NCBI GenBank assembly: GCA_964507565.1
Contig: CAZDPV010000002.1
Location: forward strand, 24,879 to 88,878
Source: an uncultured Clostridium sp.
GTDB lineage: Bacteria; Bacillota; Clostridia; TANB77; CAG-508
DNA length: 64,000 bases
Reading direction: 5' to 3'
In this document: piece by piece, positions 3,001 to 54,014 of the stretch
Numbering within the stretch: the stretch's first letter is position 1
Layout of the letters: each line of letters starts with the position of its first letter
The notes under the pieces: generated by a model
Seen by the model: the letters and a program-made list of their open reading frames with translations, nothing else
Databases searched by the model: none
Told to the model about the DNA's origin: nothing
Made by a program: the position numbers and the translations under genes

Positions 3001-4755
3001 GATTTACTCAATAAAGAAACTAAAGTATCAGTAAAAGCTTACTATGATAGTGGAATAACTGGATATAATTTAGAACAAAATCACTTTGTAACATATCAAA
3101 AACCATATCTGTCTGGGGAAACCGTATACTATTATAAGATAGATGGTAAAAAACAATTTGTTGATACTCCAGATATACTAGGAAATATATATATAAGTAC
3201 AAGAACAGAAAACTCTTTGCAAATAGTTAATGCTATGACAACAAGTTTAACAACAACAATAACACTTGATATTACAAAAAACGGATTCACATATAATGGA
3301 AATGTTATTCTACCAAAACAAGTAAATGAGCAGGAAATCGTTTCAGAGGATGGCGATAACATTATTAAATTCGATGTAATAATAACAGGAATAACTCTAA
3401 AAGATAATAAGGGAAATCTAACAATATCATCAGAGCTAGACAACGTTAGTTTTGAAGCATCTCTTTTAACAAAAGAATCTGTTAAGGATGATTTGATATA
3501 TATAGAGATATATCAAACTGACGAAAATGGAAAAACACAATACTTAACTAATACTATTTCAAAGTTAACAAGTGATTTTAACAGTAAAATTACAATAGAT
3601 GGTTTAAAACCAAAAACATATTATTTTCTTAAATTTAGAGCAAATTTTGACACATCAGATGGTGTTTCATCAAAATACTTATATGATATAGATTACGAGG
3701 TAGAGGGGAAGCAATATTATTTTTCAACGCTTGCAAATGTTGGAATAACAAATATAAGTGTAAAATATAATCCAGTTGATTATGATAACAAAACAATTGA
3801 CATAACATACAACCTTGATAAAATAATGGGATATAAGAAGATAGCATATAAGATAGAAAAATATAATGAAGTTACAAAATTATATGAAGAAACAGGAATA
3901 AAAATATCAAACGATGTACTATTTAAAAATGAAATGACTAAAAAAATAGTATGCAACCCAACTGGAGCAGATACAAAAATTATATTCGGAAAAAAATACA
4001 AAATTATAATTGCACCATTAACAGAATATACATATAATGGAACTACTACAACCTTAGATCTAGGCACAAAAGAATATGAATTTGAGCTTCAAGAACTTTC
4101 TAATCCAATTATTGCTTTAAAAGGTTCAAGATCGGGAGAAAGTAGTGCATATTTTAAAGTAACAATATATGATAATGATAAAATAATAGTTGGTGGAAAT
4201 TATTCTGTACAGATTTTTGAAAATGGTTCTATAGATATTACACCAGAGGAGTACGTAAATCAAAAATATTCAATAAATACATTTAATAAAACATTCTCTA
4301 TCTCAAACGTTAATAAAACAAGTAAATATAAAATACTAATAAAATGCAAAATAGATAAAAAGAACAATGGAAATGAAATAACAGACTTTGAAAAAAGTTA
4401 TGAATTACCATCTGTAAATGAATATGGAATTTCAGTAGGAAACGTTTCAACAGCAACAAACTTGAATGGTGGAATTTATAAAATTGATTTAATTTTTAAT
4501 AGTTCATACAAACTAAACGAAATAGACATGGTGAAATATTCAATTTATAATGTAAGCGGATATTCGCAAAGTAATGAGGAAAACTTTATACCAACTGAAA
4601 TAAATTCAGAAGATGGTGGTTTATACTATAAATTTACATTAAATAATAATATGAATGATTGTGATCAGGGAACTTATTATATTGAATTACAATTTTATAA
4701 AGATGGAAATTTAGTTGACGAAACAACAGTTGAACATGTTTATTTAAAAGAATAA
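1..4755 (+). CDS. Giant surface protein with tandem Fn3-like repeats. It is 5'-partial: the frame is open from nt 1, so the protein is longer than the 1526 aa seen here.
   Basis: There is no stop codon in frame 1 from nt 1 up to the ATG at 175, so the ORF continues upstream of the window. Repeated motifs resemble fibronectin-III/Ig-like modules (LSPNTEYTLEV, LESNTEYTVELL, LRANETYKFSVYT, LKPKTYYFLKFRA). Composition is T/S/N/K-rich. Confidence 0.6.
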   Translation, partial: KKEINGYAEIEYEDNEIVNIYNQEITYQTISSKAYLEIPNGIKINLSNKVISQNGENKMSLNNMVIDSEDNVTITDLEELQKKENTISENSTNENNTSLGTGSVTQGPTTVINNQTSTSITAGNVGDSKTDSEETVDETKTVIAPTYKVTKFETTSTGIKATIAVNDEESLLTSDSKIKVIDGETGKLVYENTESLGVYSIDVDISTLSPNTEYTLEVESSYTVDSISYTKNFVYKVFKTLPIGLGITKDVYTSDSLGINVVFESESDVKEVEVALLNNKGETIKTQKVYNKGKTENTSNVEFTQLESNTEYTVELLNAIYNGQVISNGFDITKNCKTLKEKPQISNPEFEIDKRNGKFNLDLKNSIDKDSGIQEYRFEVYDTRQSAAKTPIMSLSTNGTQTSLKVDNDKIFRNVAYIFKVIAIFNDNEKIHEYESEFSDIMQLDGTEFPTISFEKKEVTYERIEGTIIVEDKGNAISLKNGNKFTVIYNDSVGGKNESFTSEGSLKIPVSVNNLRANETYKFSVYTTVDLQDGNDPIKECFIGSVIVKTELPKNLVANFKTNKQNTKSTFDVTFQLAKENQSQTDLESQTLTGVTFSIYPGQTTDGKLPTGTPKRTVKIVDSDVSAYSSEIKTNYYDQSKSINPTFFGSQNNDFKDKYYTLVVSKAYDYTDYQNALPIINNVYTIETNGYMPDLPGDVNDALQVNVIRNRDSSSIREELDASTIVGYTVKASYDNSDYYAKKIIYKAYNAISKALISTKEVSMDKTLEIPSVTFDVKDGIDSASTDDENLTRGNTYYFTYEAELDLNGDGEAETHYPYNSNGQAVTLKSKDVIPEKQEAKIEMFPIISTKNTYSFGIKIIDIDKSINTNTASAKIDDKLVDTEVLDKTSNQYGQITFKNLSKGNLEIYITQKTINTEDSKKIYLIYQYFEGIKSISDIKFKKSLESNKLLITLIDSGEQINNIIAVKVTLESTDGTVKIEKDMLKPTNNIISINLNDISDLLNKETKVSVKAYYDSGITGYNLEQNHFVTYQKPYLSGETVYYYKIDGKKQFVDTPDILGNIYISTRTENSLQIVNAMTTSLTTTITLDITKNGFTYNGNVILPKQVNEQEIVSEDGDNIIKFDVIITGITLKDNKGNLTISSELDNVSFEASLLTKESVKDDLIYIEIYQTDENGKTQYLTNTISKLTSDFNSKITIDGLKPKTYYFLKFRANFDTSDGVSSKYLYDIDYEVEGKQYYFSTLANVGITNISVKYNPVDYDNKTIDITYNLDKIMGYKKIAYKIEKYNEVTKLYEETGIKISNDVLFKNEMTKKIVCNPTGADTKIIFGKKYKIIIAPLTEYTYNGTTTTLDLGTKEYEFELQELSNPIIALKGSRSGESSAYFKVTIYDNDKIIVGGNYSVQIFENGSIDITPEEYVNQKYSINTFNKTFSISNVNKTSKYKILIKCKIDKKNNGNEITDFEKSYELPSVNEYGISVGNVSTATNLNGGIYKIDLIFNSSYKLNEIDMVKYSIYNVSGYSQSNEENFIPTEINSEDGGLYYKFTLNNNMNDCDQGTYYIELQFYKDGNLVDETTVEHVYLKE

Positions 4756-12505: not shown

Positions 12506-15500
12506 ATGAATAAAAATGAAATAAAAGATAAACCAAAATTACATAAAAAAGGTAAAATAGCAAATCTAATAAGAAGCAATATACCAATGTTTCTAATAGT
12601 ATCAATTGGGCTACTAATAATATTATTAGTGGCACTTTATTATATATTTATGCACTTTGCTCCAGTATATGTAATCGAAAAAAGTGGATATGCAGTAAAG
12701 GATAAATTAATATATCAAGGATTACAGACATCAAATTTTAGTAGTGCAGAAAAACGAGTTAGCCTATTAGAAATTTCAGAAGAAGATACTCTATACAAAA
12801 AAATAAACAGTTATTATATTGGTGGAAATAGTAAAAAAGCTATAAACTTAAATTATCCAATATATTTAGAAGATTCAGCAATGCTAAATTTAAGTAAAGA
12901 AATGAATTTGATCACAAATTCTTTTGAAGAGGTAGGAGGATATCCAAATTTTACAATAATAGATGGAAAGATGTATAATGAAAAAGATTTAACAAGAGCA
13001 GATAGCAATGAATACATATTTCTTAAAAATAAAGAGAATTTGTTTGTAAATATTAAAGAAATATATATAAAGACTTCTACAAATGAATATAAAATACCAA
13101 TAAATAGTATTATAAATTTTAACAAAGAATTTGTTAGTTATTATAAATTACAAGACAAAGATAACTTAGAATATAGTGTAATACAAGATATAGACTTAAG
13201 TAGTATAATTACAATAAATAATGAAAGTGATAATTATGAAAATATATTAAAGAAACTTAAAATTATACAAGAAGAAAAGAAACAGGATGTAATTGTAAAT
13301 GAAATAGAAGAACCTGTTAAAAATGAAACACCCAAAAATGAAATAACGGAAAATAAAGAAGAAGAAAAAACGGACGATGAAGAAAAAAAATATATTGCTC
13401 CAGAAGTAAAATGTACAGACTTTACTGCAAATGTTTATACTGCAAAGACGAATTTATATATAAGTGACCCAAGCGGAACGATTCAAAAAGCAGTAGAATT
13501 TACAATATACAAAGATGGTAAGGTATATCAAAGAGCTCAAACTTTAGTAGGAGGAAACATTTTAATAAGTGGACTAATGCCAGATTCAAAATATTCAATA
13601 ACAGGAGAGTACACATACAAAAAAGAATCAGGAGAAAAAGTAATAAAAACATTTTATGAAGGTACGTTTAATACCAATAGATTAGAAACACTAGAAACTA
13701 TAAATTTGGAATTTGAGAATGGAGAAATATTTCCAACAAAGATTGAAATAAAAGATTTAAAAATAAATAATGATTTATATAATGACGAAGTTTTATATGG
13801 AATATCAAAAATAGTATTGGATACAGGAAAATCTAAATATAATTTAAGAGCTTCACAAATAAAAGAACTACTAAATGGAAATAAAATAACATATCAAACC
13901 GACCAAAATATAACAAGTAATAGTAATATAAAATATAAATTCCATATATATGATAAATTTGAAAATGAATTATCAGTCTCAAATAGTGAAGGGGAAACTA
14001 TAACTTCAAAAAGAGCTCCAACTTTAGTATTAAATGCAAAAAGTCAAAATATAACAGAAGTAAATGTAGGAATTAAAGTTAATAACAAGGATAACGTTAT
14101 AATAGAAAACTATAAATATGCTATATACGATGGGGAAGGGAAAGAAGTAGAAAGCCAAAACTTAAAATCATTACCAAGCGAAATTAAGATAAGAGATCTA
14201 GACCCTAATAAATTCTATGTAATAAAAATATTTGGAGATTATGATTTGGAAAACAATCAGGGAAAAACATATAATGTTGAACTGGGGGAAGCAAAATTTA
14301 CGACGTTACCAATATCTTCACTAGGATATGTATACATTGATGATAACTTAAAAGATATAAAAAGTAACCAAACAACAATTTCTATAAAAATAAATACTGA
14401 AAAAACTGATACTAGATTGGTAGAAATATTATCACAATTTAATATAAAAATAAAATCAAACAAAGATAATAAAGATACTCAAGACTATAACTTATCAAAC
14501 GAAGACCTTCTCAAAATAAAGCAGGGAAATGAATTTGAATACATATTCCAAAATCTAAATTCTAACACTAAATATTCTATTGAAGTAGAAACGAGGGCAA
14601 AACAAGGAGCTTCAACGGAAAAAGTAGGTGTAAATTTCGAGATAACGGACTTTATTACACTTAAGGAATCTGCTAGTGTACAAATTAAAAATCAATTTGT
14701 TACAGGAGAAATAATAGATTTTGATGCAAAAATAGTAGATAAAGATGAAGCTGTTTTAAATAATTCTGTACGTATGGAATTAAGGGACGAAATGGATAAG
14801 CTACTATCAATAGAAGATATGAAAACAAATGAAGAATATAAAAGAGAGACATTCAATAAATTGAGTAGTGGAAAAACATATAAAATATTATTTTACGCTG
14901 ATGAGTATAATGAGGGAAGTAAAGATGATACATACAAATCAAACTATCTTCTTAAAAAAATACAAGTTGTTACTGAGGAGGGGATAAGTGGAAATTTAAG
15001 ACTAAGTGAACTTAATAAAAAAGAAAACGGAAAAAATCTAATTGATATGGCTTCAGAAGTAAAATGGTATGTATATCCAAATTTTGACACAGGAGACTGG
15101 TATGGAAAAGAGTATAATGAAGTAACAGAAACATTGTCAATTGGAGGACATGGAAACAGTAGAAGATGTGTATATGACTTAACAGATTATTCAGGACAAA
15201 CTGTAACGATGTCTTTTAAGGCAAAGCGTATTACTAAGAACTCAAGCACTCTATATATTCAAAATGCAAGAACAGATAAAAATAGAACAATAGTTAGTGA
15301 CATAAATGAAACAGAATGGAAAAGTTATTCATATACCATAAAACTTGATGAAAGTGGATACCTTGGCTTTTATGTACAAGGTGGTGATGGAGTTCAAATA
15401 AAAGAATTACAGGTTGAACTGGGATCTAAGCAAACTCCATATCAAAAATATAAATATAATATGAGAACTAGATTACAAGTAAATTTAATTGACAAAAGAA

Positions 15501-18500
15501 ATGAAATAGAGTCGAACGAATATTTCATAAAAGAATATAAAAACAATGAGCTTATTGAAACTAAAAACTTTCAAGAAATAGATGAGAGCAACATAGTAAA
15601 AGATGTAATAAAAGAATTTTGGGTAGATGAAGAAGGAGAATACAAGTTTCAGTTAGTAATAAAGATAAGAAACAGAGAATATATACTAGATACACAAGAA
15701 ATTAAAACTGAAAAAGGAAAAGAAATAAAAGGAATTTATCAATATTCGGATTTTAAGTTGATCCAGCCAAATGGGAACTATACAGTATTTTGTGATTTAG
15801 ATTTTACAGTAGAAAGTAAACAATCATGTTCTTTTGGATATACATGGGACGAAAGATTTTCTTTTAATGGAAGCATAGATTTTAACGGACACAAAATTAT
15901 AAAAGATGCGTATGGAAATAATAGAAGTTGGCCTATATTCCCTAGAATAGGAAAAAACGGATATCTAAAAAATATAGTTATGGATGTAAGCCTAAGAAAT
16001 AATGTAGAAGTAAGAGAATTCTATGGATTATTTTATGTAAACTCTGGAACAATAGAAAATCTAGAAGTTAATTTATTAGAAAGTACAAAATATGGAAATA
16101 TACAAACTCATCTAATAGGTTTAACAAACTATGGAACAATAAATAAATTTGTTATAAATTCAAAGGTACCATACTATGGAAATTGTAGAGTAACACTGGG
16201 ATTGTATAACAATTATGGGACAATTAAAAATGGATACTTATATGGCAGTCCAATTGATGTATTTGGAGATATACCAGAAGAAATTGGATATAGATATGCA
16301 GCTGGACTGGTATTACAATCATATGGAAGTGGACAAATATCAAATGTTTATAGTTTAATAAATGTTAATGTGGAAGACCAAACTACTACTGGAAGAGAAA
16401 ATGTATCTAATATAGTAGAACATAATTACGCACACATAGATAATATTTACTCAGTAGGAACCGGAAATACAATTGAAATGTCACATGGACCATCAGTTGC
16501 ATATAATAATGGAAAAATAAATAATAACTATTACTTTGCAGATAAAGTATTTAATAACTCATATAATAATAAAACTACCAAACTTGCATTATTAGATGAA
16601 CAATTTCAAAATCAAATACTAAATAGTGAAGATGCATTTAATATAGATGATCTTATTTCAAGAGGATATTATCCACAAGTTGTTATGCCAGATTGTATGC
16701 CACGACAGGAATATATCAACCTACCTAAAGTAGATGATGCAGACTTACCAGATATAATTTCAACTAACATAATACAACAAGGCTCAGATACGGTAAAAGT
16801 TAGATTTAGTATAAATAATCCATCTGGAGAAAAAATTCAAAACATAAGTGTACAAAACCTACAAGTAAGAATAGAATCACAAAATTATGCAGATGGAAAA
16901 AGTGAAGTAATAGCAACACTACTAGAACCTACAAAGTATGTATCAACATATAATGTTCTAAGTATAACTACAAAAGGTGCATTCAATATACCATATACTA
17001 GAAAATATGCAAGCAATGAAAGAATAATAAATGTGGATTTATATAGGCAGATAAATTCTATATCAGATTGGAACAATATATCAAACCATACAGATGAAAA
17101 CTTTATGCTACTAACAGATTTAGATTTTAAAAATGAAGGAAGTTCTATATCAATAACTAAAACCTATTATGGAAAATTAGAAGGACAGGGTCACACCATT
17201 AAAAATATAAAGTCAAATAGAGGACTTCTTGCAACATTTACTGGACAAATAAATAATTTATTTATTGAAAATTATTATAATGAATCAGCATCAACAGACT
17301 ATACTGGAGTAATAGAATATTTAAATGGCGGAATAGTAAATAATGTACACATTAAAGGATTAGAGATAGACGTAAATCAAAAAAGAATAGGTGGAACAAT
17401 TACGTGTGGAGGCCTTGTTGGATATACTAATAGTGGCTCAGTAATAAAAAACAGCTCAATTGTAGATGCAACTATTATATCAAATGCAAAACTAGATAAT
17501 GCAAGATTTGGCGGATTAGTAGGATTATCAGACCAACTAGTAATAGATAACTGTTTTGCACAAAATGTAGATATTTCAGCTAATAAAAGTATTTATTATG
17601 AAGGAGTAGGAGGACTAATAGGAAGAGGAACTCCTTGTTACATAACTAATTGCTACTCGACAGGTAAAATTTTTTCAGATGGAGATAGATGTGGAGGAAT
17701 TATCGGAAACAGTAATACAAGCGGAACCCTAACAAATTGCTATAGCTTAGTAAATGTAGATAGTTATGGAGAATATATAGGAGGAATTATTGGATATAAT
17801 CTTACACCAACTTCATGCTTATCTATTGGAAATATTTATACTAGACAAGATACAAAAAACATATCTAGAACATCTGGATATCAAATAAGTAAAAAGATAA
17901 ACTATGCTTATGAGAATCAACTAATAAATGGATATATAAATGAAAATGAATTAGATTCAAATGTACTAAGTAGAGACGAAATATTTAAAAAATCCAATTA
18001 TTTAAGTGAGCTTAAATGGGATGATAATTACAATTATGATGGATTATCTAATTATATACTTCCAAAACTATATTACACAGATAAAAAAGAACTACTACCT
18101 AATCAAGAAGATAATACAATTTCAATAGACAGAGAAATAAAAGTAGAAGAGGTTCAAGCAGAGAAAACAGACGTTAATACTGTTGGTGTAAGAGTTGTAG
18201 TAAATAATCCAGGAAACAAACAAATTAAAAATGTAATAATTGATGACATGAATTCAATAATCTCAAAATCAATTTTTGATAATGGAAAAACTTATATAGA
18301 CTTAGTAACAACGCCTAAAAGATATTATGACAGCTATAAAATCTCAAGCATTGTATATGATGACAATGGAGAAGAAAAATCAAAAGAAACAGAAAATAGA
18401 ATTGATGTTAAATTTTATAAAGAAATATATAACTACAATGACTGGCAATCAATAGAAAAAGATACATTTCAAAATTATAAACTTATGAATGACATTGACT

Positions 18501-21500
18501 TTGAAGGAAAAAGTGAAGTAAATTATAATGTTACAATGGCTAGATTCGAAGCGGTAGGTGATAATAAAACATTAAAAAATATTACATTAGCAGAAATTGA
18601 GCAACAATCTGGACTAATAAACAAAATTTCCATAAATTTAGAAAATATAAATTTCGAAAATATTAACATTACATCTACTAAGTCTGGAAATGCAGTAGGA
18701 ATAATTAGAAAAGCAAGTGGAAATGTAACAAACATCAATTTTAAAGACATAACAATAACCGCAAAAAAAGTTTCTTATGTGGGATGCTTTGCTGTGGTAG
18801 ATTCCGTAACGAAAGATGTTGGACTAGAACACATTACATGCTATGGAATACACTACGTTGGTGGATATGCAGGTTCTGTCTCGAATTTAGGAAAAAATAT
18901 AAATGGAAACAACATCACGATTATTTCAACAGGAAATTATGTCGGTGGAATAGTTGGACTAAATGGTAATGGAATAGAGCCAAATCATTATAACATAAAT
19001 ATAAGTAATTCAAATGTTACAGGATATGATGTTGTTGGTGGACTTGCTGGACAATCTCCTAATATAATGGGTGCGAAAGCTACTTTTGTAACAGTAAATG
19101 GACATAGCAATGTTGGAGGAATGTATGGATATATATATGACTCTTGGGATGGATATAGCAATATTGTAACGGATTCAAATATAGCAGGTTCAGGTTCAAA
19201 TATTGGTGGATTAGCAGGACAATCAACAGACTGGTGGGGAGGAATTAGAACTGTTAAAAACAGTACTGTTACGGGTAAAAATTCAGGATCAAACAACGTG
19301 GGAGGAATCTTTGGATACTCAACAGGAGCATGTAATGCTATGAATACAATAGATGTAACTGTTACAACATTAGGAAGCAATGTAGGTGGAATTATAGGAA
19401 ACTGGAATAGATCGAATTCAACATCTGGATACTGGAGTACAGATAATGTAACGCTAACAGGATATTCAAATGTAGGAGGTTTGGTTGGTTATCATAAAGC
19501 AGGAAGAATAAATTATGCATATAGTAATGCAAAAGTAACAGCAACAGGGTATGCAGCAGGAGGAATATCTGGATATTTGGCCAATACTGGAATGACAGCA
19601 ATAACAAATGATACAGCAATAGTACAAGTTTATGTAGCTAAATCTACTGTAATTGCTCCAATAAATGCAGGAGGAATATTTGGAAAAGTTGAAACAGACT
19701 TTTATATGCCAGTATCTTTATATACTAAAATATTTGTAGAAGCCAACGTAAAATCAAATTATGACACGACATCTTCAATGATTGTGGGTTCAGACAAGAC
19801 AATGAATAGTCAATTATCAAAAATATACATCTACCAATACAGCAAGATAAATGAAAATTACATTACAAAATATAACGACAATATAGAAGCAAATAATTTC
19901 TTAAATGAAAGTAATTTAAAGCTAGCAAAAACATATTCTTCAACACTAGGATTTAATACAGGGGTATTTAATACGAATATGTTATCAAGTAATATTTATC
20001 CAACAATAAAATATGGTAGAGATGGAAATACAATGGAGCAAAGAGGAATTTCATTGCCAATGGATCCAGTAGACGTAGTTATAAATTTAGAAGAAATACA
20101 AACAATGGATTTGAAAGAAGATGAATATCCACTTATGGTAGCATCTAATTTCTTAATTAACTTAAATACTGAAAACGACCAAAAAGTGAATAACTTACCA
20201 ACGTATAGTGCATATCCAATAAGTGTAAATGAGTTTAATATAGATTTTAGTAAAATAGACGAAAATGCTTTCTTTGAATGCTATGTAAATGGTAGAAGTG
20301 CTGTAAAACAATATATAAAAAATAAAACATATACATTTAAATATGACTTTAAAACTAATATTGAAATCAATATAGGAAAAGATGATGTGGTAAAAACATT
20401 AACAATTATACCAAGTGATATAAATAAACGAACAAGTTTAAAGGGAGAAAGCATTGCATATATAAATGAAAATAAATTATATGTAAATAATGAGGAAAAA
20501 AGTGAACAATCTGTAAACTTATATGATTCCCAAGCTTTAACGAACAATGGAAAGATATACAACATATTAACTGGTGAGTATACAAATAGCAATGAAAAAA
20601 CAAATACTACAAGCATAGATGAAGAGAGCCAAAACAATAATGTTCAAAACACATTAGCATTAGAAGAAACTAAAGCGTTAGAAAAATACCAATATGATGG
20701 AAATAATATTGAAAGCTTTGGAACGTACAGCATAGTAAATGGCAATAGAAAGTCACAAATTTATATAGTAAAAAACAACAAGTTATCAGTGATAGATAGC
20801 TCATTAGATATCAAAATTTCAAACCAAGTAATTGATTTCTACAATGGAAAAGAATATCAATCAGTACTAAAAAAAGATGGAAAGATAAACAATTTAAAAG
20901 AAAGTCTAAAATATCCTAAAAATTTTAATAATAGTACAATAAAAGAAATAACAATGAATCAAGAAGAAGAAAGAAAAGAAGTAATGGTACTATATGAAAA
21001 CGGAAAGGTCATAGTATTCAATTACATGGATGGAAATGAAAAATACAATAATAATGTGAAAGAAGAAGTAAGTTTATTAGACTTTTTAAAAGAAAATTTG
21101 TTTAATGCAAATATGATATATGAAGACTTATCAGAAGAATATGAACAATGCAAACAAGTACAAGAAAAGCTAGAAGAAACTCCAATAAGTGAGCTAAACA
21201 TAAATTCGAGTTCAAATAATAGTTCATCTAATGCAACATCAAGTGGATCAAACAATAATAAAACAAATAAATACACTACAATGTACAATGCAACAAGCAA
21301 AAAATATGAAGTATATAATGAAAATGAACTATTAACAAGCAAAGAAGAGGTACCAGAATCAGAAACTACTAAGATTGAAAAAACAGAATTATTATCTAAA
21401 TATTATCTAAGTGGAATAAAAGAAAAATCAAATTCTAATAAAAATAATGGTACGGTTTGGATAATATCAACAATAATTGGAATTTTAATAATTCTCATAA

Positions 21501-21562
21501 TATTATACAAAGTAAACAACAGAAAAAGAATAGCAATTAAAAAAAATACAAATAAAAAATAA
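12506..21562 (+). CDS. Giant (3018 aa) cell-surface protein anchored by a TM helix at each end. It has Fn3-like repeats, a jelly-roll/CBM-like module and a long GLUG-type right-handed beta-helix repeat region.
   Basis: N-terminal TM is IPMFLIVSIGLLIILLVALYYIFM. C-terminal TM is WIISTIIGILIILIILY followed by NRKRIAIKK. Fn3-like motifs LMPDSKYSITGEYTY, LDPNKFYVIKIFGDYD, LNSNTKYSIEVETRA. Repeated GLUG-like units (NCYSTGKI...GGIIGNSN..GTLTNCYS, VGGLAGQS, VGGIFGYS, VGGIIGNW, VGGLVGYH, AGGISGY) span about nt 17400-19700. Confidence 0.6.
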   Translation: MNKNEIKDKPKLHKKGKIANLIRSNIPMFLIVSIGLLIILLVALYYIFMHFAPVYVIEKSGYAVKDKLIYQGLQTSNFSSAEKRVSLLEISEEDTLYKKINSYYIGGNSKKAINLNYPIYLEDSAMLNLSKEMNLITNSFEEVGGYPNFTIIDGKMYNEKDLTRADSNEYIFLKNKENLFVNIKEIYIKTSTNEYKIPINSIINFNKEFVSYYKLQDKDNLEYSVIQDIDLSSIITINNESDNYENILKKLKIIQEEKKQDVIVNEIEEPVKNETPKNEITENKEEEKTDDEEKKYIAPEVKCTDFTANVYTAKTNLYISDPSGTIQKAVEFTIYKDGKVYQRAQTLVGGNILISGLMPDSKYSITGEYTYKKESGEKVIKTFYEGTFNTNRLETLETINLEFENGEIFPTKIEIKDLKINNDLYNDEVLYGISKIVLDTGKSKYNLRASQIKELLNGNKITYQTDQNITSNSNIKYKFHIYDKFENELSVSNSEGETITSKRAPTLVLNAKSQNITEVNVGIKVNNKDNVIIENYKYAIYDGEGKEVESQNLKSLPSEIKIRDLDPNKFYVIKIFGDYDLENNQGKTYNVELGEAKFTTLPISSLGYVYIDDNLKDIKSNQTTISIKINTEKTDTRLVEILSQFNIKIKSNKDNKDTQDYNLSNEDLLKIKQGNEFEYIFQNLNSNTKYSIEVETRAKQGASTEKVGVNFEITDFITLKESASVQIKNQFVTGEIIDFDAKIVDKDEAVLNNSVRMELRDEMDKLLSIEDMKTNEEYKRETFNKLSSGKTYKILFYADEYNEGSKDDTYKSNYLLKKIQVVTEEGISGNLRLSELNKKENGKNLIDMASEVKWYVYPNFDTGDWYGKEYNEVTETLSIGGHGNSRRCVYDLTDYSGQTVTMSFKAKRITKNSSTLYIQNARTDKNRTIVSDINETEWKSYSYTIKLDESGYLGFYVQGGDGVQIKELQVELGSKQTPYQKYKYNMRTRLQVNLIDKRNEIESNEYFIKEYKNNELIETKNFQEIDESNIVKDVIKEFWVDEEGEYKFQLVIKIRNREYILDTQEIKTEKGKEIKGIYQYSDFKLIQPNGNYTVFCDLDFTVESKQSCSFGYTWDERFSFNGSIDFNGHKIIKDAYGNNRSWPIFPRIGKNGYLKNIVMDVSLRNNVEVREFYGLFYVNSGTIENLEVNLLESTKYGNIQTHLIGLTNYGTINKFVINSKVPYYGNCRVTLGLYNNYGTIKNGYLYGSPIDVFGDIPEEIGYRYAAGLVLQSYGSGQISNVYSLINVNVEDQTTTGRENVSNIVEHNYAHIDNIYSVGTGNTIEMSHGPSVAYNNGKINNNYYFADKVFNNSYNNKTTKLALLDEQFQNQILNSEDAFNIDDLISRGYYPQVVMPDCMPRQEYINLPKVDDADLPDIISTNIIQQGSDTVKVRFSINNPSGEKIQNISVQNLQVRIESQNYADGKSEVIATLLEPTKYVSTYNVLSITTKGAFNIPYTRKYASNERIINVDLYRQINSISDWNNISNHTDENFMLLTDLDFKNEGSSISITKTYYGKLEGQGHTIKNIKSNRGLLATFTGQINNLFIENYYNESASTDYTGVIEYLNGGIVNNVHIKGLEIDVNQKRIGGTITCGGLVGYTNSGSVIKNSSIVDATIISNAKLDNARFGGLVGLSDQLVIDNCFAQNVDISANKSIYYEGVGGLIGRGTPCYITNCYSTGKIFSDGDRCGGIIGNSNTSGTLTNCYSLVNVDSYGEYIGGIIGYNLTPTSCLSIGNIYTRQDTKNISRTSGYQISKKINYAYENQLINGYINENELDSNVLSRDEIFKKSNYLSELKWDDNYNYDGLSNYILPKLYYTDKKELLPNQEDNTISIDREIKVEEVQAEKTDVNTVGVRVVVNNPGNKQIKNVIIDDMNSIISKSIFDNGKTYIDLVTTPKRYYDSYKISSIVYDDNGEEKSKETENRIDVKFYKEIYNYNDWQSIEKDTFQNYKLMNDIDFEGKSEVNYNVTMARFEAVGDNKTLKNITLAEIEQQSGLINKISINLENINFENINITSTKSGNAVGIIRKASGNVTNINFKDITITAKKVSYVGCFAVVDSVTKDVGLEHITCYGIHYVGGYAGSVSNLGKNINGNNITIISTGNYVGGIVGLNGNGIEPNHYNINISNSNVTGYDVVGGLAGQSPNIMGAKATFVTVNGHSNVGGMYGYIYDSWDGYSNIVTDSNIAGSGSNIGGLAGQSTDWWGGIRTVKNSTVTGKNSGSNNVGGIFGYSTGACNAMNTIDVTVTTLGSNVGGIIGNWNRSNSTSGYWSTDNVTLTGYSNVGGLVGYHKAGRINYAYSNAKVTATGYAAGGISGYLANTGMTAITNDTAIVQVYVAKSTVIAPINAGGIFGKVETDFYMPVSLYTKIFVEANVKSNYDTTSSMIVGSDKTMNSQLSKIYIYQYSKINENYITKYNDNIEANNFLNESNLKLAKTYSSTLGFNTGVFNTNMLSSNIYPTIKYGRDGNTMEQRGISLPMDPVDVVINLEEIQTMDLKEDEYPLMVASNFLINLNTENDQKVNNLPTYSAYPISVNEFNIDFSKIDENAFFECYVNGRSAVKQYIKNKTYTFKYDFKTNIEINIGKDDVVKTLTIIPSDINKRTSLKGESIAYINENKLYVNNEEKSEQSVNLYDSQALTNNGKIYNILTGEYTNSNEKTNTTSIDEESQNNNVQNTLALEETKALEKYQYDGNNIESFGTYSIVNGNRKSQIYIVKNNKLSVIDSSLDIKISNQVIDFYNGKEYQSVLKKDGKINNLKESLKYPKNFNNSTIKEITMNQEEERKEVMVLYENGKVIVFNYMDGNEKYNNNVKEEVSLLDFLKENLFNANMIYEDLSEEYEQCKQVQEKLEETPISELNINSSSNNSSSNATSSGSNNNKTNKYTTMYNATSKKYEVYNENELLTSKEEVPESETTKIEKTELLSKYYLSGIKEKSNSNKNNGTVWIISTIIGILIILIILYKVNNRKRIAIKKNTNKK

Positions 21563-21579
21563 AGAATATATAAAAAACG

Positions 21580-21608
21580 TTGACATAAGCAACAAAAAAA
21601 TGTATAAT
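21580..21608 (+). promoter_or_regulatory. Consensus sigma-A promoter for the thrS T-box leader (TTGACA, 17 nt spacer, TATAAT)
   Basis: ttgaca at 21580-85, a 17-nt spacer, tataat at 21603-08. Confidence 0.6.
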
Positions 21609-21614
21609 AAAAAT

Positions 21615-21860
21615 AGTTTAAGAAAGCTAATGGAAGGAAAAGTAAAGTAAAAGTTACTTATAAGAGAAAATTAGTCGTGGGCTGAAAGCTAATTTAAGCA
21701 AACATACTTGAAAAACTACCTTCAAAAAGTGCTAGTGAGTAAGCTAGACGTTTAAGCTACGTTATAAGCTATAAAAATAAGTGAAAAATCCGGGTGGAAC
21801 CGTACTAAATAAAGTACCCCAGAACATATCTTTTTAGATATGTTCTGTTTTTTATTTTAT
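21615..21860 (+). promoter_or_regulatory. T-box riboswitch leader (Thr specifier) controlling thrS
   Basis: The T-box consensus AAUCCGGGUGGAACCGUAC is at about 21787-21805. The specifier region ...AAAACUACC... contains ACU (Thr) followed by A. An AGAGA-like element is upstream. An intrinsic terminator (agaacatatc...gatatgttct plus T-run) is at 21821-21857. Confidence 0.8.
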
Positions 21861-23824: not shown

Positions 23825-23850
23825 AACTGTAAGACAAAACATATTTATTA

Positions 23851-23890
23851 AAACAGTATTTTTAGAAAATACTGTTTTTTTTTATTTTTT
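23851..23890 (+). terminator. Rho-independent terminator after thrS
   Basis: aaacagtattt...aatactgttt hairpin followed by a T-run. Confidence 0.6.
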
Positions 23891-23931
23891 AATGATATAA
23901 TTTTATAAAATATAGGAAAAGGAATTGTATT

Positions 23932-25134
23932 ATGGAAACAACGGAAATAAATAAATTAGGAAAAGAACTAGAGCTATATAAAACAGTAGATTATATTGGA
24001 AAGGGATTCCCAATAATTTTGCCCAGAGGAGCTAAAATACTAAAAATAATTAAAGATTATGTTGAACAAGAAGAAGAAAAAGAAGGGTATAAAATTGTAC
24101 AAACTCCTAGCGTCTCAAATGCAGAAATATATATAATAGAAGACAGATTTGAAAATGAAAAAGATGAAATGTTTATAATAAAAAATAATGAATCAGATAA
24201 TGATTGCGATGAAAAGTCAACAAACCAAATAGTATTAAGACCATATGTACAACCGTTTCATTGTAGTATTTATAAATCAAAACAATATAGTTATAAAGAA
24301 TTACCAGTAAAGTTTAGTGAAACATCAACAGTATTTAGAAATGAAAGAGATATAAAAGGAATAACTAGAACAAGGCAGATAACTATGTCTGATGCAAGTA
24401 TATATTCTACACCTGAAAAAATAGAAAAAACTATTAGAGAAGCAATTATGATGCAACAAAGATTTATAAAGAAGCTAAATTTAGATGTAGAATATGTAAT
24501 AGAAACATGGAATGATACAAAAAAAGAAGAATATATTGGAAATATTGAAGAATGGGACTTTCTTACAGAAAGTATGAAATCTGCGTTAAATAGCTTAAAT
24601 ATAGAATATAAAGAAAAAGAAAATGCAAAAATGTATGGACCAACAATAAAAATATTATATAATAAAAAATACTTTTCAAGCTTACAAATTGACTTTGAAA
24701 TTACCCATAGATTTAATTTAAAATATATTAGCGAAAATAATGAGGAAAAATTCCCAGTATATATGCACTTAACATTTGTTGGAAGTTATGAAAATATGCT
24801 TGGCATTCTCTTAGAAAAATACAAGGGTACTTTTCCACTGTGGTTATCACCAACGCAAATTATGATAATAGACGAAGGTGAAGAATTTGATGACTATGCT
24901 GATAATCTGAAAAATGAATTTATAAAAAATGGATTAAGAGCAGAAACAGACAATTCAAGTAATAGCAGTCAAAACAAAATAGGAAAAGCGGTAGACTTTA
25001 AAATACCATATATAGTAACTATTGGAAAGAAAGAATTAAACCAAAATACAATAAAAATTCACGGAGTAGATAAACCATACAAAATAGAAGAATTTATAGA
25101 GGAGGTTCTAAATTGCAACAAGATTCAAAAGTAA
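23932..25134 (+). CDS. Truncated ThrRS paralog (class II catalytic core plus anticodon-binding domain only; two of three zinc ligands substituted)
   Basis: It is co-linear with thrS residues from about 250 to the C-terminus (GKGFPIILPRGAKI vs GSGFPMYLPDGATI; LRP...IYK; MYGPTIKILY vs FYGPKLDVQI; FPLWLSP vs LPLWLAP). The zinc Cys (MNCPHH) aligns with Gln (VQPFHC) and the His (DAHLF) with Ser (DASIY). The third His and the motif-2 Arg are retained. Confidence 0.75.
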   Translation: METTEINKLGKELELYKTVDYIGKGFPIILPRGAKILKIIKDYVEQEEEKEGYKIVQTPSVSNAEIYIIEDRFENEKDEMFIIKNNESDNDCDEKSTNQIVLRPYVQPFHCSIYKSKQYSYKELPVKFSETSTVFRNERDIKGITRTRQITMSDASIYSTPEKIEKTIREAIMMQQRFIKKLNLDVEYVIETWNDTKKEEYIGNIEEWDFLTESMKSALNSLNIEYKEKENAKMYGPTIKILYNKKYFSSLQIDFEITHRFNLKYISENNEEKFPVYMHLTFVGSYENMLGILLEKYKGTFPLWLSPTQIMIIDEGEEFDDYADNLKNEFIKNGLRAETDNSSNSSQNKIGKAVDFKIPYIVTIGKKELNQNTIKIHGVDKPYKIEEFIEEVLNCNKIQK

Positions 25135-27311
25135 TAGAAGAAAATAATTTTGAAGAAATATTAAATTACATTGGACTAAATATGAATGAAAATTATCAAG
25201 AAGATAATCAAAAGCCTGAATATAATATTGCAAAAGCCTATGACAATAATGTTTTATATAAAATCTATAAAAAAATAAATATAAATGATATAGTTATTTT
25301 AATAAGCAATACAGATAGAACAACAGATATAAAAGAAAGATATGAAACTGCTAAACCAATATTCACATATATAAAGGAAAACAAAAATGATTTTAAAAAT
25401 ATAGTAGAAAGAGCATCTATACAAGAAATAAAAAAATTGGAAAACATACAAGAAGAATTTAAAACAAAAATACCATATTTTATAAAATATGATAAAAACT
25501 ATTTATGGCAGATTTATTACTCAAAAGCAGATGATAAATATTTTATGCTATTTCCAGCAAAAGAAGGAGAAACATCAGTAGTACTATACTTACTAAAAGA
25601 ACAATTAAAAAAAGAAGATAATTATATATATATACCAATCTGCAAAGAAGAATATAGTGAAGAAATACTGTCTAAAAAGCAAATAAGTGATATGGAAAAT
25701 TATATTTGGCTATTTACTAACCAATTTCCAACCACTTATGAATATACAACTACTGATGGTAGCAAAACATTATTCTTAATTGGAGAAACTAATATTCAAG
25801 AAAATTTAAAAACAAAATATAAAATAGAAATAAAAAATAAAGATGAAGCGGAAAAACAATATGCACTATTTAAAGCATTATTTATATTAACAACAGAAAC
25901 TAACTATAATTACGAATTTGAACCAAGACTTGATGAAATGGGAAAATTAGTTTTAACATACAATGATAAAATAATCTCATTTGATAATCTCGAGCAATTT
26001 ATTAAAACGGAAAACTTGGAAAAGAGAACATTGGAAAAGAGTTTAAACACGAAAATTGGAAATGAAAAAAAGTATTTAGAAGAACTAAAACAACAAATAA
26101 AAGAACAAACAGATACTTATGCAAAACAAGAGAAGCAAATTGTTATGTTTTTAAACTGCAAAAAAAGTTTTTTCAAGAGGATAAAGTTTTTTTTCTCTGG
26201 AAATAAAAAACTAAAATTAAAAATAAAAAATGATGAAGAATTACCAAAAAAAGATACAGACTTTGTTTCTGAAGAAGTAAAACAAGAAGAAAATAATCAG
26301 GAAGAAATAGTAAGTAGAACATATTCAATAGCTGACTTAATAAAAATCTGCACAGAAGCTAAGAAAATAATAGAAGAAGAAAAAAACATAAGTGCAGATA
26401 TAAAAGCATTAGAGCTAAAAAAAGAAAATATGATTAGAAAAATAGAAAACGCACAAAATTATATTGAAGAAATAGAAAAACACAAGAAAAGTATCTTTGA
26501 CTTTTGGAAATTTACTAATAAGGATAATTTACCAGAACTATCGGTAGGAGAAAAAAAAGAAGTCGAAGCAAAAGTGAAAATTGGTTTTAATTTTGAAGAA
26601 GATTTACCAGAACTTATGATAAAGGCTGATGAATTGCAAAGAAGAAAACTTTCAATAGATGAATGTAACTCTATTTATTTATGCGATAAAATTTTGCCAG
26701 CAATAAATAGCTCAATTTGTAAATGTGATACATACAAAATTGGAGAGGAATATGAAAAATTAGTTAAAGAGTATTCGCCAATAAATAAAATATCTGAATT
26801 ATTTGGTGGAATTGAAGATGACTATACTAAAATAAAAACTTTGAATAATAGAAAGCATAGAGAAAACCAAAAGAATATTTATTCAATTTTAAAAATAAAT
26901 CAAACCACAAGCGTTGATGATTTTAAAAATATAATAAAAGAAAAATCAAGACTTGTGAATGAAGCATATCAAAAAATCACTTCAATTTGCAGTATGCCTA
27001 TTTATTATACAAATAAACAAAAAGGATTTACAATTGGAAATATAAATCCGTACAAATTATTTCAAGAATTGGAATGTAATAAAATATATAAAATGAATCT
27101 AAATGAAAATTCACATATTTTATATATGAGCAATATCATATTTTATGATAATTACAATAAAACTTTACCACTAGGAATGGATGAGTCAACTGAAGTAATA
27201 ATAAAAGTCGGAGAAAATAGAAAAATCTCGGAAAAAAATATAAATATCTTAATAGAAAAAGATTTATACAATGTTGAAATAAAGCAAATAAAACTAATAG
27301 AGGAACAGTAA
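25113..27311 (+). CDS. Hypothetical 732-aa protein (central K/E-rich coiled coil), translationally coupled to the ThrRS paralog
   Basis: Its start overlaps the upstream stop by 22 nt. No recognisable motifs. Confidence 0.4.
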   Translation: MQQDSKVIEENNFEEILNYIGLNMNENYQEDNQKPEYNIAKAYDNNVLYKIYKKININDIVILISNTDRTTDIKERYETAKPIFTYIKENKNDFKNIVERASIQEIKKLENIQEEFKTKIPYFIKYDKNYLWQIYYSKADDKYFMLFPAKEGETSVVLYLLKEQLKKEDNYIYIPICKEEYSEEILSKKQISDMENYIWLFTNQFPTTYEYTTTDGSKTLFLIGETNIQENLKTKYKIEIKNKDEAEKQYALFKALFILTTETNYNYEFEPRLDEMGKLVLTYNDKIISFDNLEQFIKTENLEKRTLEKSLNTKIGNEKKYLEELKQQIKEQTDTYAKQEKQIVMFLNCKKSFFKRIKFFFSGNKKLKLKIKNDEELPKKDTDFVSEEVKQEENNQEEIVSRTYSIADLIKICTEAKKIIEEEKNISADIKALELKKENMIRKIENAQNYIEEIEKHKKSIFDFWKFTNKDNLPELSVGEKKEVEAKVKIGFNFEEDLPELMIKADELQRRKLSIDECNSIYLCDKILPAINSSICKCDTYKIGEEYEKLVKEYSPINKISELFGGIEDDYTKIKTLNNRKHRENQKNIYSILKINQTTSVDDFKNIIKEKSRLVNEAYQKITSICSMPIYYTNKQKGFTIGNINPYKLFQELECNKIYKMNLNENSHILYMSNIIFYDNYNKTLPLGMDESTEVIIKVGENRKISEKNINILIEKDLYNVEIKQIKLIEEQ

Positions 27312-27443: not shown

Positions 27444-28925
27444 TTACAATATAATGCAAATCAATCCTCCAGAACCCTCATTTACAATACGCTCTAATGT
27501 CTGCTGTAATTTTACTTGAGCATCTTCAGGCATACATGCCAGTTTGTTTTGAAGACCTTCATTAACAAGCTCATGTAAACTTCTACCAAATATATTAGAC
27601 TCCCAAATTTTCTTGGGATCATTTTCAAACTGAGAAAGAAGATATTTTACTAAATCTTCAGATTGTTTTTCACTTCCAACAATAGGAGAAATTTCAGTTT
27701 CAACATCAGTTTTAATTAAATGAATTGAAGGTGCTTTTGCTTTTAACTTTACTCCAAATTTAGAACCTTGTTTAACCATTTCAGGTTCATCTAAAATTAA
27801 ATCTTCCATAGAAGGTGTAATAATTCCATATCCCTTAGCTTTAACTTCCTCTAATGCGGGTTCAATCTTATCATATTCTGTTTTAATTTTAGAAAATTTA
27901 TAAAATGTTGAAAACAGTTCAAATTCATTGGAAATTGTTTGACCTGACATTTCTGTAAGTACCTTATAGAACAAATCGGATTTTACATTCATAGTAACTG
28001 TAACATTTCCATTCCCAAGATTTATTTCATCGACTGAACTTGACGTTACAATGTTACTTTCAGGCATTGATGCAACTGTAGCACTTACTTGTTTTATAAT
28101 TCTTACGTTTTGAAAATCTGTTTTTATTTCTTTAAACATTTCTTTTCTTAACCAGTGATCAAACCCAAGGGCATCAATCCATTTAGGATAATTTATGTTA
28201 ATTCTCTGTGTTGGAAATTCATACAACATTTTACCGAATATTTCATTTACATTATCTATATTTAGATTTGCACAGTCCATTGAAATAACAGAAACTCCAT
28301 ACTTCTCCTGTAAGGAATTAGCTAAATCCTTTGAATAATCAGAGTTCGGGTCAACACTATTTAAAACAATTACGAATGGTTTATTTAGAGATTTTAATTC
28401 TTTTGCAACTCTTTCTTCTGCTAAAATGTAATCATCACGAGGAATTCCAGAAAAGCTTCCATCTGTTGTTACTAAAATGCCAACTGTTGAATGATCTTGA
28501 ATTACTTTTTTTGTGCCTATTTCAGCTGCTTCTTCAAAAGGAATTTCATCAGCAGACCACGGAGTTTTTACCATTCTTGGAATATCATTTTCTAAATATC
28601 CAATAGCATTACTAACCAAATATCCAACGCAATCAACAAATCTTGCTTTAAATTTCACATTTCCGTTAACAGTAATTGGAACAGCCTCATTAGGAATAAA
28701 TTTGGGTTCTGTAGTCATTATTGTTTTTCCAGAACCACTTTGAGGCATTTCATCTAAAGTTCTTTCTCTTTTATATTGATTGTCAATATTAGGAATTACA
28801 AGTAAATCCATAAAATTTTTAATAAACGTGGACTTACCAGTCCTTACTGGACCAACAACACCAACATAAATGTCACCATCTGTACGCTTTGCAATATCTT
28901 CATATAATTTTGAATTGTCCTCCAT
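27444..28925 (-). CDS. spoIVA: Stage IV sporulation protein A
   Basis: The N-terminus DIAKRTDGDIYVGVVGPVRTGKSTFIKNFMDLLVIPNI matches the SpoIVA Walker A region. Length is 493 aa. Confidence 0.9.
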   Translation of the reverse strand: MEDNSKLYEDIAKRTDGDIYVGVVGPVRTGKSTFIKNFMDLLVIPNIDNQYKRERTLDEMPQSGSGKTIMTTEPKFIPNEAVPITVNGNVKFKARFVDCVGYLVSNAIGYLENDIPRMVKTPWSADEIPFEEAAEIGTKKVIQDHSTVGILVTTDGSFSGIPRDDYILAEERVAKELKSLNKPFVIVLNSVDPNSDYSKDLANSLQEKYGVSVISMDCANLNIDNVNEIFGKMLYEFPTQRININYPKWIDALGFDHWLRKEMFKEIKTDFQNVRIIKQVSATVASMPESNIVTSSSVDEINLGNGNVTVTMNVKSDLFYKVLTEMSGQTISNEFELFSTFYKFSKIKTEYDKIEPALEEVKAKGYGIITPSMEDLILDEPEMVKQGSKFGVKLKAKAPSIHLIKTDVETEISPIVGSEKQSEDLVKYLLSQFENDPKKIWESNIFGRSLHELVNEGLQNKLACMPEDAQVKLQQTLERIVNEGSGGLICIIL

Positions 28926-38997: not shown

Positions 38998-39195
38998 AAA
39001 GTGAATTCATTCCTGCCTGGTTCGTGCAAATTAGGATTTTAGAACCAACAAATAGATTAAAGGGAGTCCGCCTTTGAATGTGGCGTGTATGCTTAACATA
39101 ACGTTATGAAACCCAGAAGCATTCGACAAGACACCCACCTGTGTAAACAGGCTCTTAAAATTCTTAATTAACGGCCGAGGCGGGCCTTTTTTTTT
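38998..39195 (+). ncRNA. Candidate structured small RNA of about 200 nt (6S-like or unknown) ending in a GC-hairpin/T9 terminator; alternatively a cis leader of the downstream gene
   Basis: A 200-nt non-coding block has much higher GC than its surroundings (cctgcctggttcgtgc, gggagtccgcc, ggcgtg, acccacctgtgtaaacaggc). The 5' end (gaatt...gcctg...gtg) is partly complementary to the 3' end (cac...caggc...aattc), which suggests a long imperfect rod. A terminator ggccgaggcgggcc plus TTTTTTTTT is at 39174-39195. Confidence 0.45.
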
Positions 39196-53744: not shown

Positions 53745-53820
53745 GGTCGCTTAGCTCAGCTGGGAGAGCATCTGCCTTACAAGCAGAGGGTCATAGGTTC
53801 GAGCCCTATAGCGACCACCA
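53745..53820 (+). tRNA. tRNA-Val (anticodon TAC)
   Basis: Acceptor stem GGTCGCT/AGCGACC, D-loop AGCTCAGCTGGGAGAGC, anticodon loop CTTACAA, T-arm GGTTCGAGCCC, encoded CCA. Confidence 0.9.
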
Positions 53821-53826
53821 TTTAAT

Positions 53827-53904: not shown

Positions 53905-54014
53905 TTTTTTTATTAGAGATAATAAAGATGGTGACTTTTGTTATATTACTAAGAAATATAAATTCTTGTTATTTAAGTAATATAAAATTAAATAAACTTT
54001 CAATTAAGCAAAAC

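Follow-up and report, generated by a model that had tools for sequence, protein, structure and literature searches.

A degenerate threonyl-tRNA synthetase paralog encoded directly upstream of a protein with a predicted ADP-ribosyltransferase-like fold in uncultured Clostridia

We examined a stretch of 64,000 nucleotides (nt) from the genome of an uncultured Clostridium sp. (contig CAZDPV010000002.1 of assembly GCA_964507565.1; hereafter the window, in whose numbering all positions and the plus-strand gene order are given). The window is very AT-rich, with a G+C content of 28%. Three consecutive genes within it are of particular interest: a canonical thrS encoding threonyl-tRNA synthetase (ThrRS), a shorter ThrRS-derived gene of 400 codons (hereafter the paralog), and a gene overlapping the end of the paralog that encodes a protein of 732 amino acids (hereafter the partner). 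The features of the locus are collected in Table 1.

Table 1. Features of the thrS-paralog-partner locus and of single paralog residues, in order of position. Residues of the canonical enzyme carry Escherichia coli numbers.
Feature	Position	Strand	Description
Sigma-70-type promoter	21580..21608	+	TTGACA-17-TATAAT, 12/12 matches; 5' of the thrS leader
T-box leader of canonical thrS	21621..21824	+	Rfam RF00230, 55.9 bits, E 8.9e-12
Leader terminator	21820..21857	+	12-bp hairpin and U-run
Canonical thrS, 641 aa	21899..23824	+	TGS, tRNA_SAD, class II core, anticodon-binding domain (Pfam)
Terminator-like hairpin 3' of thrS	23850..23890	+	13-bp stem, 3-nt loop, U9; -10.5 kcal/mol
Extended -10 box TGATATAAT	23893..23901	+	31 nt 5' of the paralog ATG; read from sequence
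ThrRS-derived paralog, 400 aa	23932..25134	+	Class II core and anticodon-binding domain; begins at a position matching E. coli residue ~242
Asp71-Arg72 replacing Gly308-His309	24142..24147	+	Asp invariant; Arg in 118/119 paralogs
Gln107 at zinc ligand Cys334	24250..24252	+	VLRPYVQPFHC vs VLRPMNCPHH; variable in the family (Q/S/R/M/A/E)
Ser156 at zinc ligand His385	24397..24399	+	MSDASIY vs QNDAHLF; Ser in 118/119 paralogs
Thr238 at Lys465	24643..24645	+	Ser, Ala or Thr in the family
His279 at third zinc-ligand position His511, kept	24766..24768	+	His in 90% of the family
Asn288 at motif-3 Arg520	24793..24795	+	Asn in 77%, Arg in 5% of the family
Shine-Dalgarno GAGGAGG and TTG start of partner	25099..25115	+	Within the 3' end of the paralog
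Partner, 732 aa	25113..27311	+	No match to any curated family
Partner N-terminal alpha/beta domain	25245..25982	+	Residues ~45-290; AlphaFold2 model, invariant residues
Partner coiled-coil hairpin	25989..26516	+	Helices 293-361 and 406-468 (AlphaFold2 model)
Partner C-terminal domain	26592..27305	+	Residues 494-731; four helices and eight-stranded sandwich; Foldseek against PDB
spoIVA	27444-28925	-	Convergent, just 3' of the partner

The canonical gene product scores 739.7 bits against the thrS equivalog model TIGR00418 (cutoff 383.65), and all of its catalytic and zinc residues are present when tabulated against E. coli ThrRS. The paralog scores 305.2 bits, under the same cutoff. In Pfam it matches tRNA-synt_2b (residues 95-297, E 5e-27) and HGTP_anticodon (residues 310-392, E 5.5e-13) and nothing else; neither TGS nor tRNA_SAD was found. 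The tRNA-synt_2b match (PF00587, 95.6 bits, gathering threshold 29.3) places it among the class II aminoacyl-tRNA synthetase (aaRS) cores, and its best relatives in PDB are all ThrRS, with the alignment beginning at the start of the catalytic domain. The original prediction, made from the sequence of the window, had described a 400-residue paralog reduced to the class II core and the anticodon-binding domain and lacking the TGS and editing domains, and Pfam agrees. It had also named two substituted zinc ligands, Cys to Gln and His to Ser, along with a preserved third His and motif-2 Arg; alignment of the paralog to the ThrRS of Staphylococcus aureus (1nyq) and E. coli shows the same substitutions, with His279 at the position of His511 and Arg136 at that of Arg363. 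A zinc ligand conserved at a shifted position was considered and is not supported, because position 334 is variable in the family and the conserved Cys111 (position 338) is the commonest residue in canonical ThrRS too.

The substitutions are not confined to the zinc site. The active-site set of ThrRS consists of the zinc ligands together with His309, Asp383, Gln381, Arg363 and Lys465 (PMC3907816), and the adenine of ATP is sandwiched by Phe379 and Arg520 (PMC11252418). We compared residue statistics for 119 paralogs and 59 canonical ThrRS. At 45 positions a residue is conserved in at least 90% of the canonical enzymes, and 29 of these are retained in the paralogs; the lost ones are mostly named active-site residues (H309, C334, H385, K465 and R520), along with neighbors such as T482 and R512. 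The position of Lys465 is occupied by Ser or Ala in more than 90% of the paralogs, Gln381 is replaced by Leu or Met, and the motif-2 loop of the paralog is two residues shorter. Motif-2 Arg363 and Glu365, which correspond to Arg136 and Glu138 of the paralog, are kept in 95% and 97% of the family, and Asp383, Tyr462, Gly463-Pro464, Gln484 and Asp486 are retained, as are the features of motif 1 (GY..V.TP, with Pro296 in 100%). The anticodon-binding domain keeps its fold, Glu600 (92%), and the linker residues Pro539 and Gln541, while Arg583 is found in none of the paralogs (0%) and Arg609 in 29%. Arg583, Glu600 and Arg609 of ThrRS are responsible for anticodon and operator binding (PMC6430810), and zinc-ligand mutants of the Anabaena ThrRS T1 lose aminoacylation (PMC4787780). 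Loss of the zinc ligands, Arg520, Lys465, His309 and residues of the motif-2 loop makes ATP-dependent activation of an amino acid by the paralog unlikely, and loss of Arg583 together with Arg609 makes normal recognition of tRNA-Thr unlikely. Judged from these alignments, the residues with which ThrRS binds threonine through zinc, clamps ATP, catalyses transfer and reads the anticodon are missing from the paralog.

The paralog belongs to a conserved family. A homology search returned more than 100 clusters at 90% identity, with intact open reading frames (ORFs) of 390-449 amino acids that are 51-63% identical to the paralog of the window. In an exhaustive search with clustering at 50%, the family is represented by one full-length representative (P0241, 435 bits), and the next match is an ordinary ThrRS at 263 bits. 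Other short ThrRS-like proteins among the best 150 representatives all keep the full catalytic set, and the only degenerate ones in that sample are this family and a single full-length protein, P0371. The ratio of nonsynonymous to synonymous substitution rates (dN/dS), calculated for unsaturated pairs of loci, is 0.02-0.15 for the paralog, 0.04-0.05 for canonical thrS, and 0.06-0.20 for the partner. Furthermore, 31 positions are conserved in at least 90% of the paralogs and rare in canonical ThrRS, and D71, R72, S153, S156, M234, E256, H259 and Y277 are family-specific residues that line the old active site. This pattern of substitution indicates that the pocket is remodelled under selection and that the protein is not decaying. 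Two irregular copies were observed: one locus has the paralog split into two overlapping ORFs by a frameshift or an assembly error (L021, 4779-5973), and another has a shortened copy of 303 amino acids (L003, 4607-5515).

The paralog is about 31% identical to the ThrRS of its own genome, which is no higher than its identity to unrelated ThrRS. In a neighbor-joining tree, which is too crude to settle their origin, the paralogs form a monophyletic long branch outside the local thrS clade. The low identity and the un-nested long branch suggest an old, fast-diverged copy or an old acquisition. A recent tandem duplication of the adjacent thrS was considered and is unsupported, given the same identity and the separate branch.

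Second genes of the ThrRS family within one genome are known from Anabaena (T1/T2), Bacillus subtilis (ThrS/ThrZ), and the resistance copies BorO and ObaO, which, unlike the paralog, are full-length, active, and keep the zinc triad. Crenarchaea divide the functions of ThrRS over two genes, ThrRS-cat and ThrRS-ed, one of which has a degenerate catalytic domain. That degenerate copy keeps the editing domain and edits Ser-tRNA-Thr, whereas the paralog has neither an editing domain nor the anticodon-reading arginines; its score against the Ser-tRNA(Thr) hydrolase model NF011500 is 44.5 bits (cutoff 362). The ThrRS entries in a 2022 review of aaRS duplications are the Anabaena T2 and eukaryotic ThrRS-L only, and the review names no truncated, zinc-less bacterial ThrRS paralog (PMC9437257). 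Full-text literature searches likewise returned no description of such a paralog or of the partner family. The full-length degenerate protein mentioned above, P0371 (634 amino acids), carries K/M/E/V/D/Y/G/R/R at catalytic positions 309/334/363/365/383/385/465/484/511, so that its catalytic site is almost wholly degenerate, and it keeps Arg520 and the anticodon residues R583/E600/R609. It may be an inactive ThrRS paralog of a second type that arose independently and resembles an editing-only enzyme.

The partner is annotated by NCBI as a hypothetical protein. It has 934 detectable homologs, and a scan of one genome per GTDB species found it in at least 440 species, all of them uncultured Clostridia from gut, rumen or oral samples, such as Clostridium sp. 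CAG:793 and CAG:567. There was no real match to the partner in Pfam (searched with the window protein and all 23 members of its alignment), NCBIfam, PADLOC, PHROGs, or a sequence-profile search of PDB. The PADLOC search gave LmuB at E 0.15 for the partner, over the coiled coil only, and nothing for the paralog; in PHROGs the paralog matches only a ThrRS-like phrog. No relatives were found in viral contigs, and a phage or defense origin was rejected on that ground.

Since sequence searches assign the partner to no family, we turn to its predicted structure. An AlphaFold2 model was built from the 23-sequence alignment, with a mean predicted local distance difference test score (pLDDT) of 79.5 and a predicted template modeling score (pTM) of 0.66. 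The model contains three parts. The N-terminal alpha/beta domain is the most conserved part of the protein, with the segments PYFIKYDKNYLWQIYYS, YFMLFP and ENYIW.FT..WP, and it has no significant structural match in the libraries searched. The coiled-coil label given in the original prediction is borne out by the two long helices in the middle of the model, which are joined by an acidic disordered loop (residues 368-399) and accompanied by the conserved basic/aromatic segments QEKQIVMFLNCKKSFFK and HKKSIFDFWKFTNKD. When the whole model was compared with PDB by Foldseek, the only matches were C3-like and binary-toxin ADP-ribosyltransferases (ARTs), with E about 1e-3. Residues 488-732 modelled alone (pLDDT 81.7) again retrieved ART-fold proteins only, namely Ia, C2-I, Certhrax, Plx2A, CDTa, C3bot, ExoS/T and anthrax LF, with E of 3e-4 to 1e-2, probabilities of 0.9-1.0, and a target-normalised template modeling score of 0.45-0.53 for C3; therefore the similarity belongs to the C-terminal domain. 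The matches are borderline but consistent, and the C-terminal domain is predicted to have a C3-like ART fold. An internal duplication relating the N-terminal and C-terminal domains was also considered, and hhalign found no homology between them.

The last 245 residues of the partner have their secondary-structure elements in the same sequence as C3bot, iota Ia, C2-I, CDTa, Certhrax and Plx2A, with four helices followed by a beta-beta-alpha element and six strands. Unlike those C3-like and binary-toxin enzymes, the domain has no sequence similarity to them and shows no invariant Ser-Thr-Ser or Glu-x-Glu, and it sits within a protein of 730 amino acids alongside an unrelated N-terminal domain and a coiled coil. 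In an alignment of 197 sequences the invariant residues of the C-terminal domain are D506, E517, R583, E584, K621, Y631, N674, N680, TLP684-686 and GM688-689; the same sequences, compared at the level of the alignment, show no STS and no invariant Glu after residue 584, where ExE is expected. As far as invariant residues tell, the domain appears to have an ART fold from which the canonical R-S-E catalytic residues are missing. It resembles less an active enzyme than the inactive adaptor domains with an ART fold that occur in binary toxins and in anthrax lethal factor.

The paralog and partner genes are tightly linked. As the original prediction held, the stop codon of the paralog (25132-25134) overlaps the start of the partner; the TTG at 25113 lies 7 nt after GAGGAGG (25099-25105), and the overlap measures 22 nt. 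The arrangement of AAGGAGGT followed by TTG or GTG inside the end of the paralog is found in 13 loci, with an overlap of 19 nt in 11 of them and of 7 nt in two (L006 and L016). Nearly all other pairs are separated by gaps of 2-101 nt, and a single locus (L011, 5606-5974) has a gap of about 370 nt and no overlap. It is probable that the two genes are co-expressed and translationally coupled. No fusion of the two proteins of the Rosetta-stone type was seen among the 120 best matches listed in the paralog search, nor in the partner search.

We examined the genomic neighborhoods of the 80 best partner loci, along with further look-ups that included L083 and L085. Wherever a paralog was found it lies directly upstream of the partner, in 30 of 30 loci (the first 80 loci contain 26 intact and two disrupted copies, and the other two are L083 and L085). 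The closest relatives show the order thrS-paralog-partner or, at the end of the contig or of the synteny, paralog-partner alone, and in two further look-ups the flanking genes differ while the trio persists. No canonical thrS is adjacent in five loci that carry the paralog and include 4.7 kb or more of upstream sequence; in these the partner is always adjacent. Linkage of the partner to thrS extends to genomes that lack the paralog: in 14 paralog-less loci canonical thrS is followed by the partner within 18-250 nt. In the rest of the 80 loci the partner has no thrS immediately upstream. Pairwise distances between paralogs correlate with those between partners (r = 0.86), and controlling for canonical ThrRS gives a partial correlation of 0.76 (permutation p 5e-4); that of canonical ThrRS with the partner given the paralog is -0.06. 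We regard this as weak but consistent evidence suggestive of co-evolution. Two loci from oral Clostridiales metagenome-assembled genomes (L019 and L030) have thrS followed directly by the partner and no paralog, with partners about 40% identical to that of the window, as close as the partners of some paralog-bearing species. This suggests secondary loss of the paralog there, or a gain that was not strictly clade-wide.

Transcription of the pair appears to be separate from that of thrS. The original prediction placed a T-box-regulated thrS and its terminator directly upstream of the paralog. The leader contains an AGAGA box, a Thr specifier region (ACU/ACC), the T-box sequence GGGUGGAACCG, and a terminator, and scores below the RF00230 gathering score of 93, so that it is missed at the gathering threshold; the T-box elements are present all the same, and the hairpin and U9 follow thrS as described. 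Alignment to RF00230 leaves the stem II and stem III regions of the leader mostly deleted. In the minimum free energy fold of the leader the 12-bp terminator hairpin forms beside the predicted antiterminator helix without overlapping the 3' arm of the antiterminator, and the two do not compete in that fold. The box TGATATAAT is a putative promoter of the paralog-partner operon. The window and eight further loci (L005, L007, L008, L010, L013, L022, L026 and L083) have a hairpin and U-run followed by TGnTATAAT in the thrS-paralog spacer; in two loci this spacer leaves no room for either. Control of the paralog by a T-box was considered and dropped, because no T-box was found between thrS and the paralog in the window, nor in four loci in which thrS is not next to the paralog. 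The terminator and the conserved extended -10 box would thus separate the paralog-partner operon from T-box control. In the spacers of L007 and L008 (about 4500-4680) there is a GC-rich insert of about 170 nt within otherwise AT-rich sequence. It has no Rfam match and no copy in the other fetched loci; its edges form an inverted repeat (GTTATAGT...ACTATAAC), and it looks like a small mobile or structured element.

How could a degenerate synthetase and a protein with an ART-like domain work together? Our tentative explanation, to which we give slightly less than an even chance, is that the paralog is a non-catalytic, ThrRS-derived adaptor or regulatory subunit of the partner. The paralog keeps the class IIa fold, with its core scaffold, motif 1, the motif-2 Arg and Glu, and the fold of the anticodon-binding domain; we propose that, because the zinc site, the motif-3 Arg, Lys465, His309 and the anticodon arginines are lost, it neither activates threonine nor charges tRNA-Thr. 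The operon would be transcribed from its own promoter 3' of the thrS terminator, and translational coupling would lead to the two proteins being made in matched amounts, most likely forming a complex. Within such a complex the paralog may act as an adaptor or as a regulatory, possibly ligand-sensing, subunit of the partner. Since the partner follows canonical thrS directly in many genomes without the paralog, we propose that the partner ancestrally worked with, or was co-expressed with, a ThrRS core, and that a ThrRS copy was later dedicated to it and freed from the constraints of aminoacylation.

There are instructive analogies for such a role. HisZ is a class IIa synthetase-core paralog that has given up aminoacylation and retains a relic pocket, as we propose for the ThrRS paralog, and it acts as a subunit of a hetero-complex with HisG. 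It differs in its HisRS origin, in having no canonical anticodon-binding domain, and in its known partner and ligand; the paralog scores 16.6 bits against the HisZ model TIGR00443 (cutoff 271.65), so that the likeness is a functional analogy only. POLG2 (Pol gamma B) has an inactive class IIa synthetase-like fold with an anticodon-binding-like domain and is the accessory subunit of the mitochondrial DNA polymerase. It differs from the paralog in being eukaryotic and mitochondrial, of GlyRS/ProRS-like origin, and in having a DNA polymerase as its partner, and it too is likened by analogy and not by sequence. The paralog may thus be to the partner what HisZ is to HisG and POLG2 to Pol gamma.

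Several observations count against the adaptor explanation. Translational coupling and synteny indicate co-expression and not the formation of a complex. Many genomes have the partner but no paralog, and often no thrS beside it, so that the partner has no strict need of a ThrRS-like neighbor. The correlation of distances may partly reflect two fast-evolving proteins that are better clocks than the slowly evolving canonical ThrRS. Half of the former pocket remains (R363, E365, D383, Y462, Q484, D486 and H511), which makes residual nucleotide or amino-acid chemistry possible. Finally, the tree lends no support to an origin of the paralog by duplication, and an old horizontal transfer is possible.

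The kept half of the pocket leads to an alternative that we consider unlikely, in which the paralog is still an enzyme. Its remodelled pocket would activate or ligate another substrate, be it a small molecule, a different amino acid or a carrier-protein acceptor, and the partner would serve as the acceptor or as the following enzyme of the pathway. The new invariant polar residues in the pocket and the strong purifying selection are as expected for an enzyme, as is the retention of Gly463-Pro464 along with the pocket residues just listed, and there are precedents in AsnA, EpmA/PoxA, and the SerRS-like amino acid:carrier-protein ligases (PMC9437257). However, Arg520 is replaced by Asn in most of the family and Lys465 by Ser or Ala in nearly all of it, and the motif-2 loop is shortened. 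Catalytically active class II paralogs, to our knowledge, keep the motif-3 arginine. There are also no carrier-protein or biosynthetic genes nearby. From the altered zinc site the original prediction had proposed either a non-canonical substrate or a regulatory or moonlighting role. That the paralog is not an ordinary ThrRS stands; the evidence favors the second option, and the further losses at His309, Lys465, Arg520, Arg583 and Arg609, which that prediction had not noted, speak against the first. The conserved and selected family, the conclusion that the paralog is not a recent thrS copy, the linkage of the partner to thrS in paralog-less genomes, and the ART-like fold of the partner also go beyond it.

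It is similarly doubtful that the paralog acts on canonical ThrRS, forming a heterodimer through the class II dimer interface that modulates or re-targets the enzyme, with the link to the partner being secondary. SLIMP, an inactive SerRS paralog that pairs with canonical SerRS, is a precedent from another synthetase, and the duplicated ThrRS copies T1 and T2 of Anabaena heterodimerise (PMC4787780). Adjacency of the two genes and the retained motif-1 features would fit such an arrangement. Nevertheless, the five loci without an adjacent thrS always have the partner, distances between paralogs follow those of the partner more closely than those of thrS, and a terminator separates the transcription of thrS in most loci.

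We attach the same low probability to the view that the paralog and the partner are functionally unrelated, with an order and overlap passed down as synteny in a genome that is compact and AT-rich. Many genomes have the partner on its own, the flanking synteny of spoIVA and UDPGP is also conserved within the clade, and short overlaps are common in compact genomes. This view does not readily account for the persistence of the trio where the flanks change, for a start codon inside the stop region with a strong Shine-Dalgarno sequence in 13 loci, or for the correlated distances.

A toxin-immunity or anti-phage module, with the ART-fold partner as the effector and the synthetase-like paralog as immunity protein or sensor, is highly improbable. 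Tight coupling of the genes and the exclusive match of the C-terminal domain to ART toxins, including the ART-ARH effector-immunity pair 8za7, are in keeping with it. On the other hand, the genes hold a fixed place beside thrS in many species-level genomes, and their distances rise with those of thrS, as in vertical descent. The absence of PADLOC or PHROG matches and of viral-contig relatives also argues against such a module, as does the lack of an invariant Glu or STS where ART catalysis needs them. No signal peptide or secretion context was noticed, although no formal search was made. The least probable reading, that the paralog is a decaying thrS duplicate, as the lost catalytic residues and the split and shortened copies would allow, is refuted by the low dN/dS, the many clusters with intact ORFs, and the family-specific invariant residues.

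HisZ, POLG2 and SLIMP are examples of non-catalytic synthetase paralogs, each of which brought unexpected biology to light; the 2022 review names no bacterial case derived from ThrRS (PMC9437257). While aaRS-derived pseudoenzymes are already known, what is new here is the origin from ThrRS, the disappearance of zinc site, ATP clamp and anticodon reading together, and the coupling to an ART-fold protein. The paralog is a lineage-wide, strongly selected and clean case of a repurposed synthetase core with new invariant residues in its old pocket. Should the paralog and the partner form a complex, the function of an unannotated protein that is widespread in the gut microbiota would become directly approachable, and the locus would serve as a natural experiment in the conversion of aaRS scaffolds into adaptors. 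Otherwise the paralog is still a well-defined new aaRS-like family, which merits a curated model that would end its annotation as threonine--tRNA ligase. A more ambitious version of the adaptor explanation, which we consider less likely than any of the enzyme, heterodimer and unrelated-neighbor alternatives, is that the two proteins form a new translation-linked machine of gut Clostridia, in which the zinc-free recognition subunit hands an RNA, ThrRS itself or a small-molecule signal over to the partner, whose ART fold would have a non-canonical active site and which in turn modifies or regulates a component of threonine or tRNA metabolism. If this is true, a ThrRS-derived pseudo-synthetase with its own dedicated effector would be known from bacteria for the first time, and the partner would represent a new ART-like family with an intracellular housekeeping role.

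Several other features were observed around the locus. A spoIVA gene was noted in the window and in 15 related loci; it lies convergently just 3' of the partner in about half of the paralog-bearing loci, and in three paralog-less loci (L037, L052 and L055) it lies about 3.5 kb upstream of the partner. We read its proximity as regional synteny and not as a functional link. Directly upstream of the thrS promoter is an ORF of 3018 amino acids (12506-21562, plus strand). Hydrophobic segments lie close to its two termini, and it has long Gly-rich repeats of GG(I/L)xG type; it looks like a cell-surface or adhesin-like protein. Further downstream, the plus strand of the window encodes a 6S RNA at 39007-39190 (RF00013, 90.7 bits) and a tRNA cluster at 53745-54090 with Val(TAC), Asp(GTC) and Phe(GAA).

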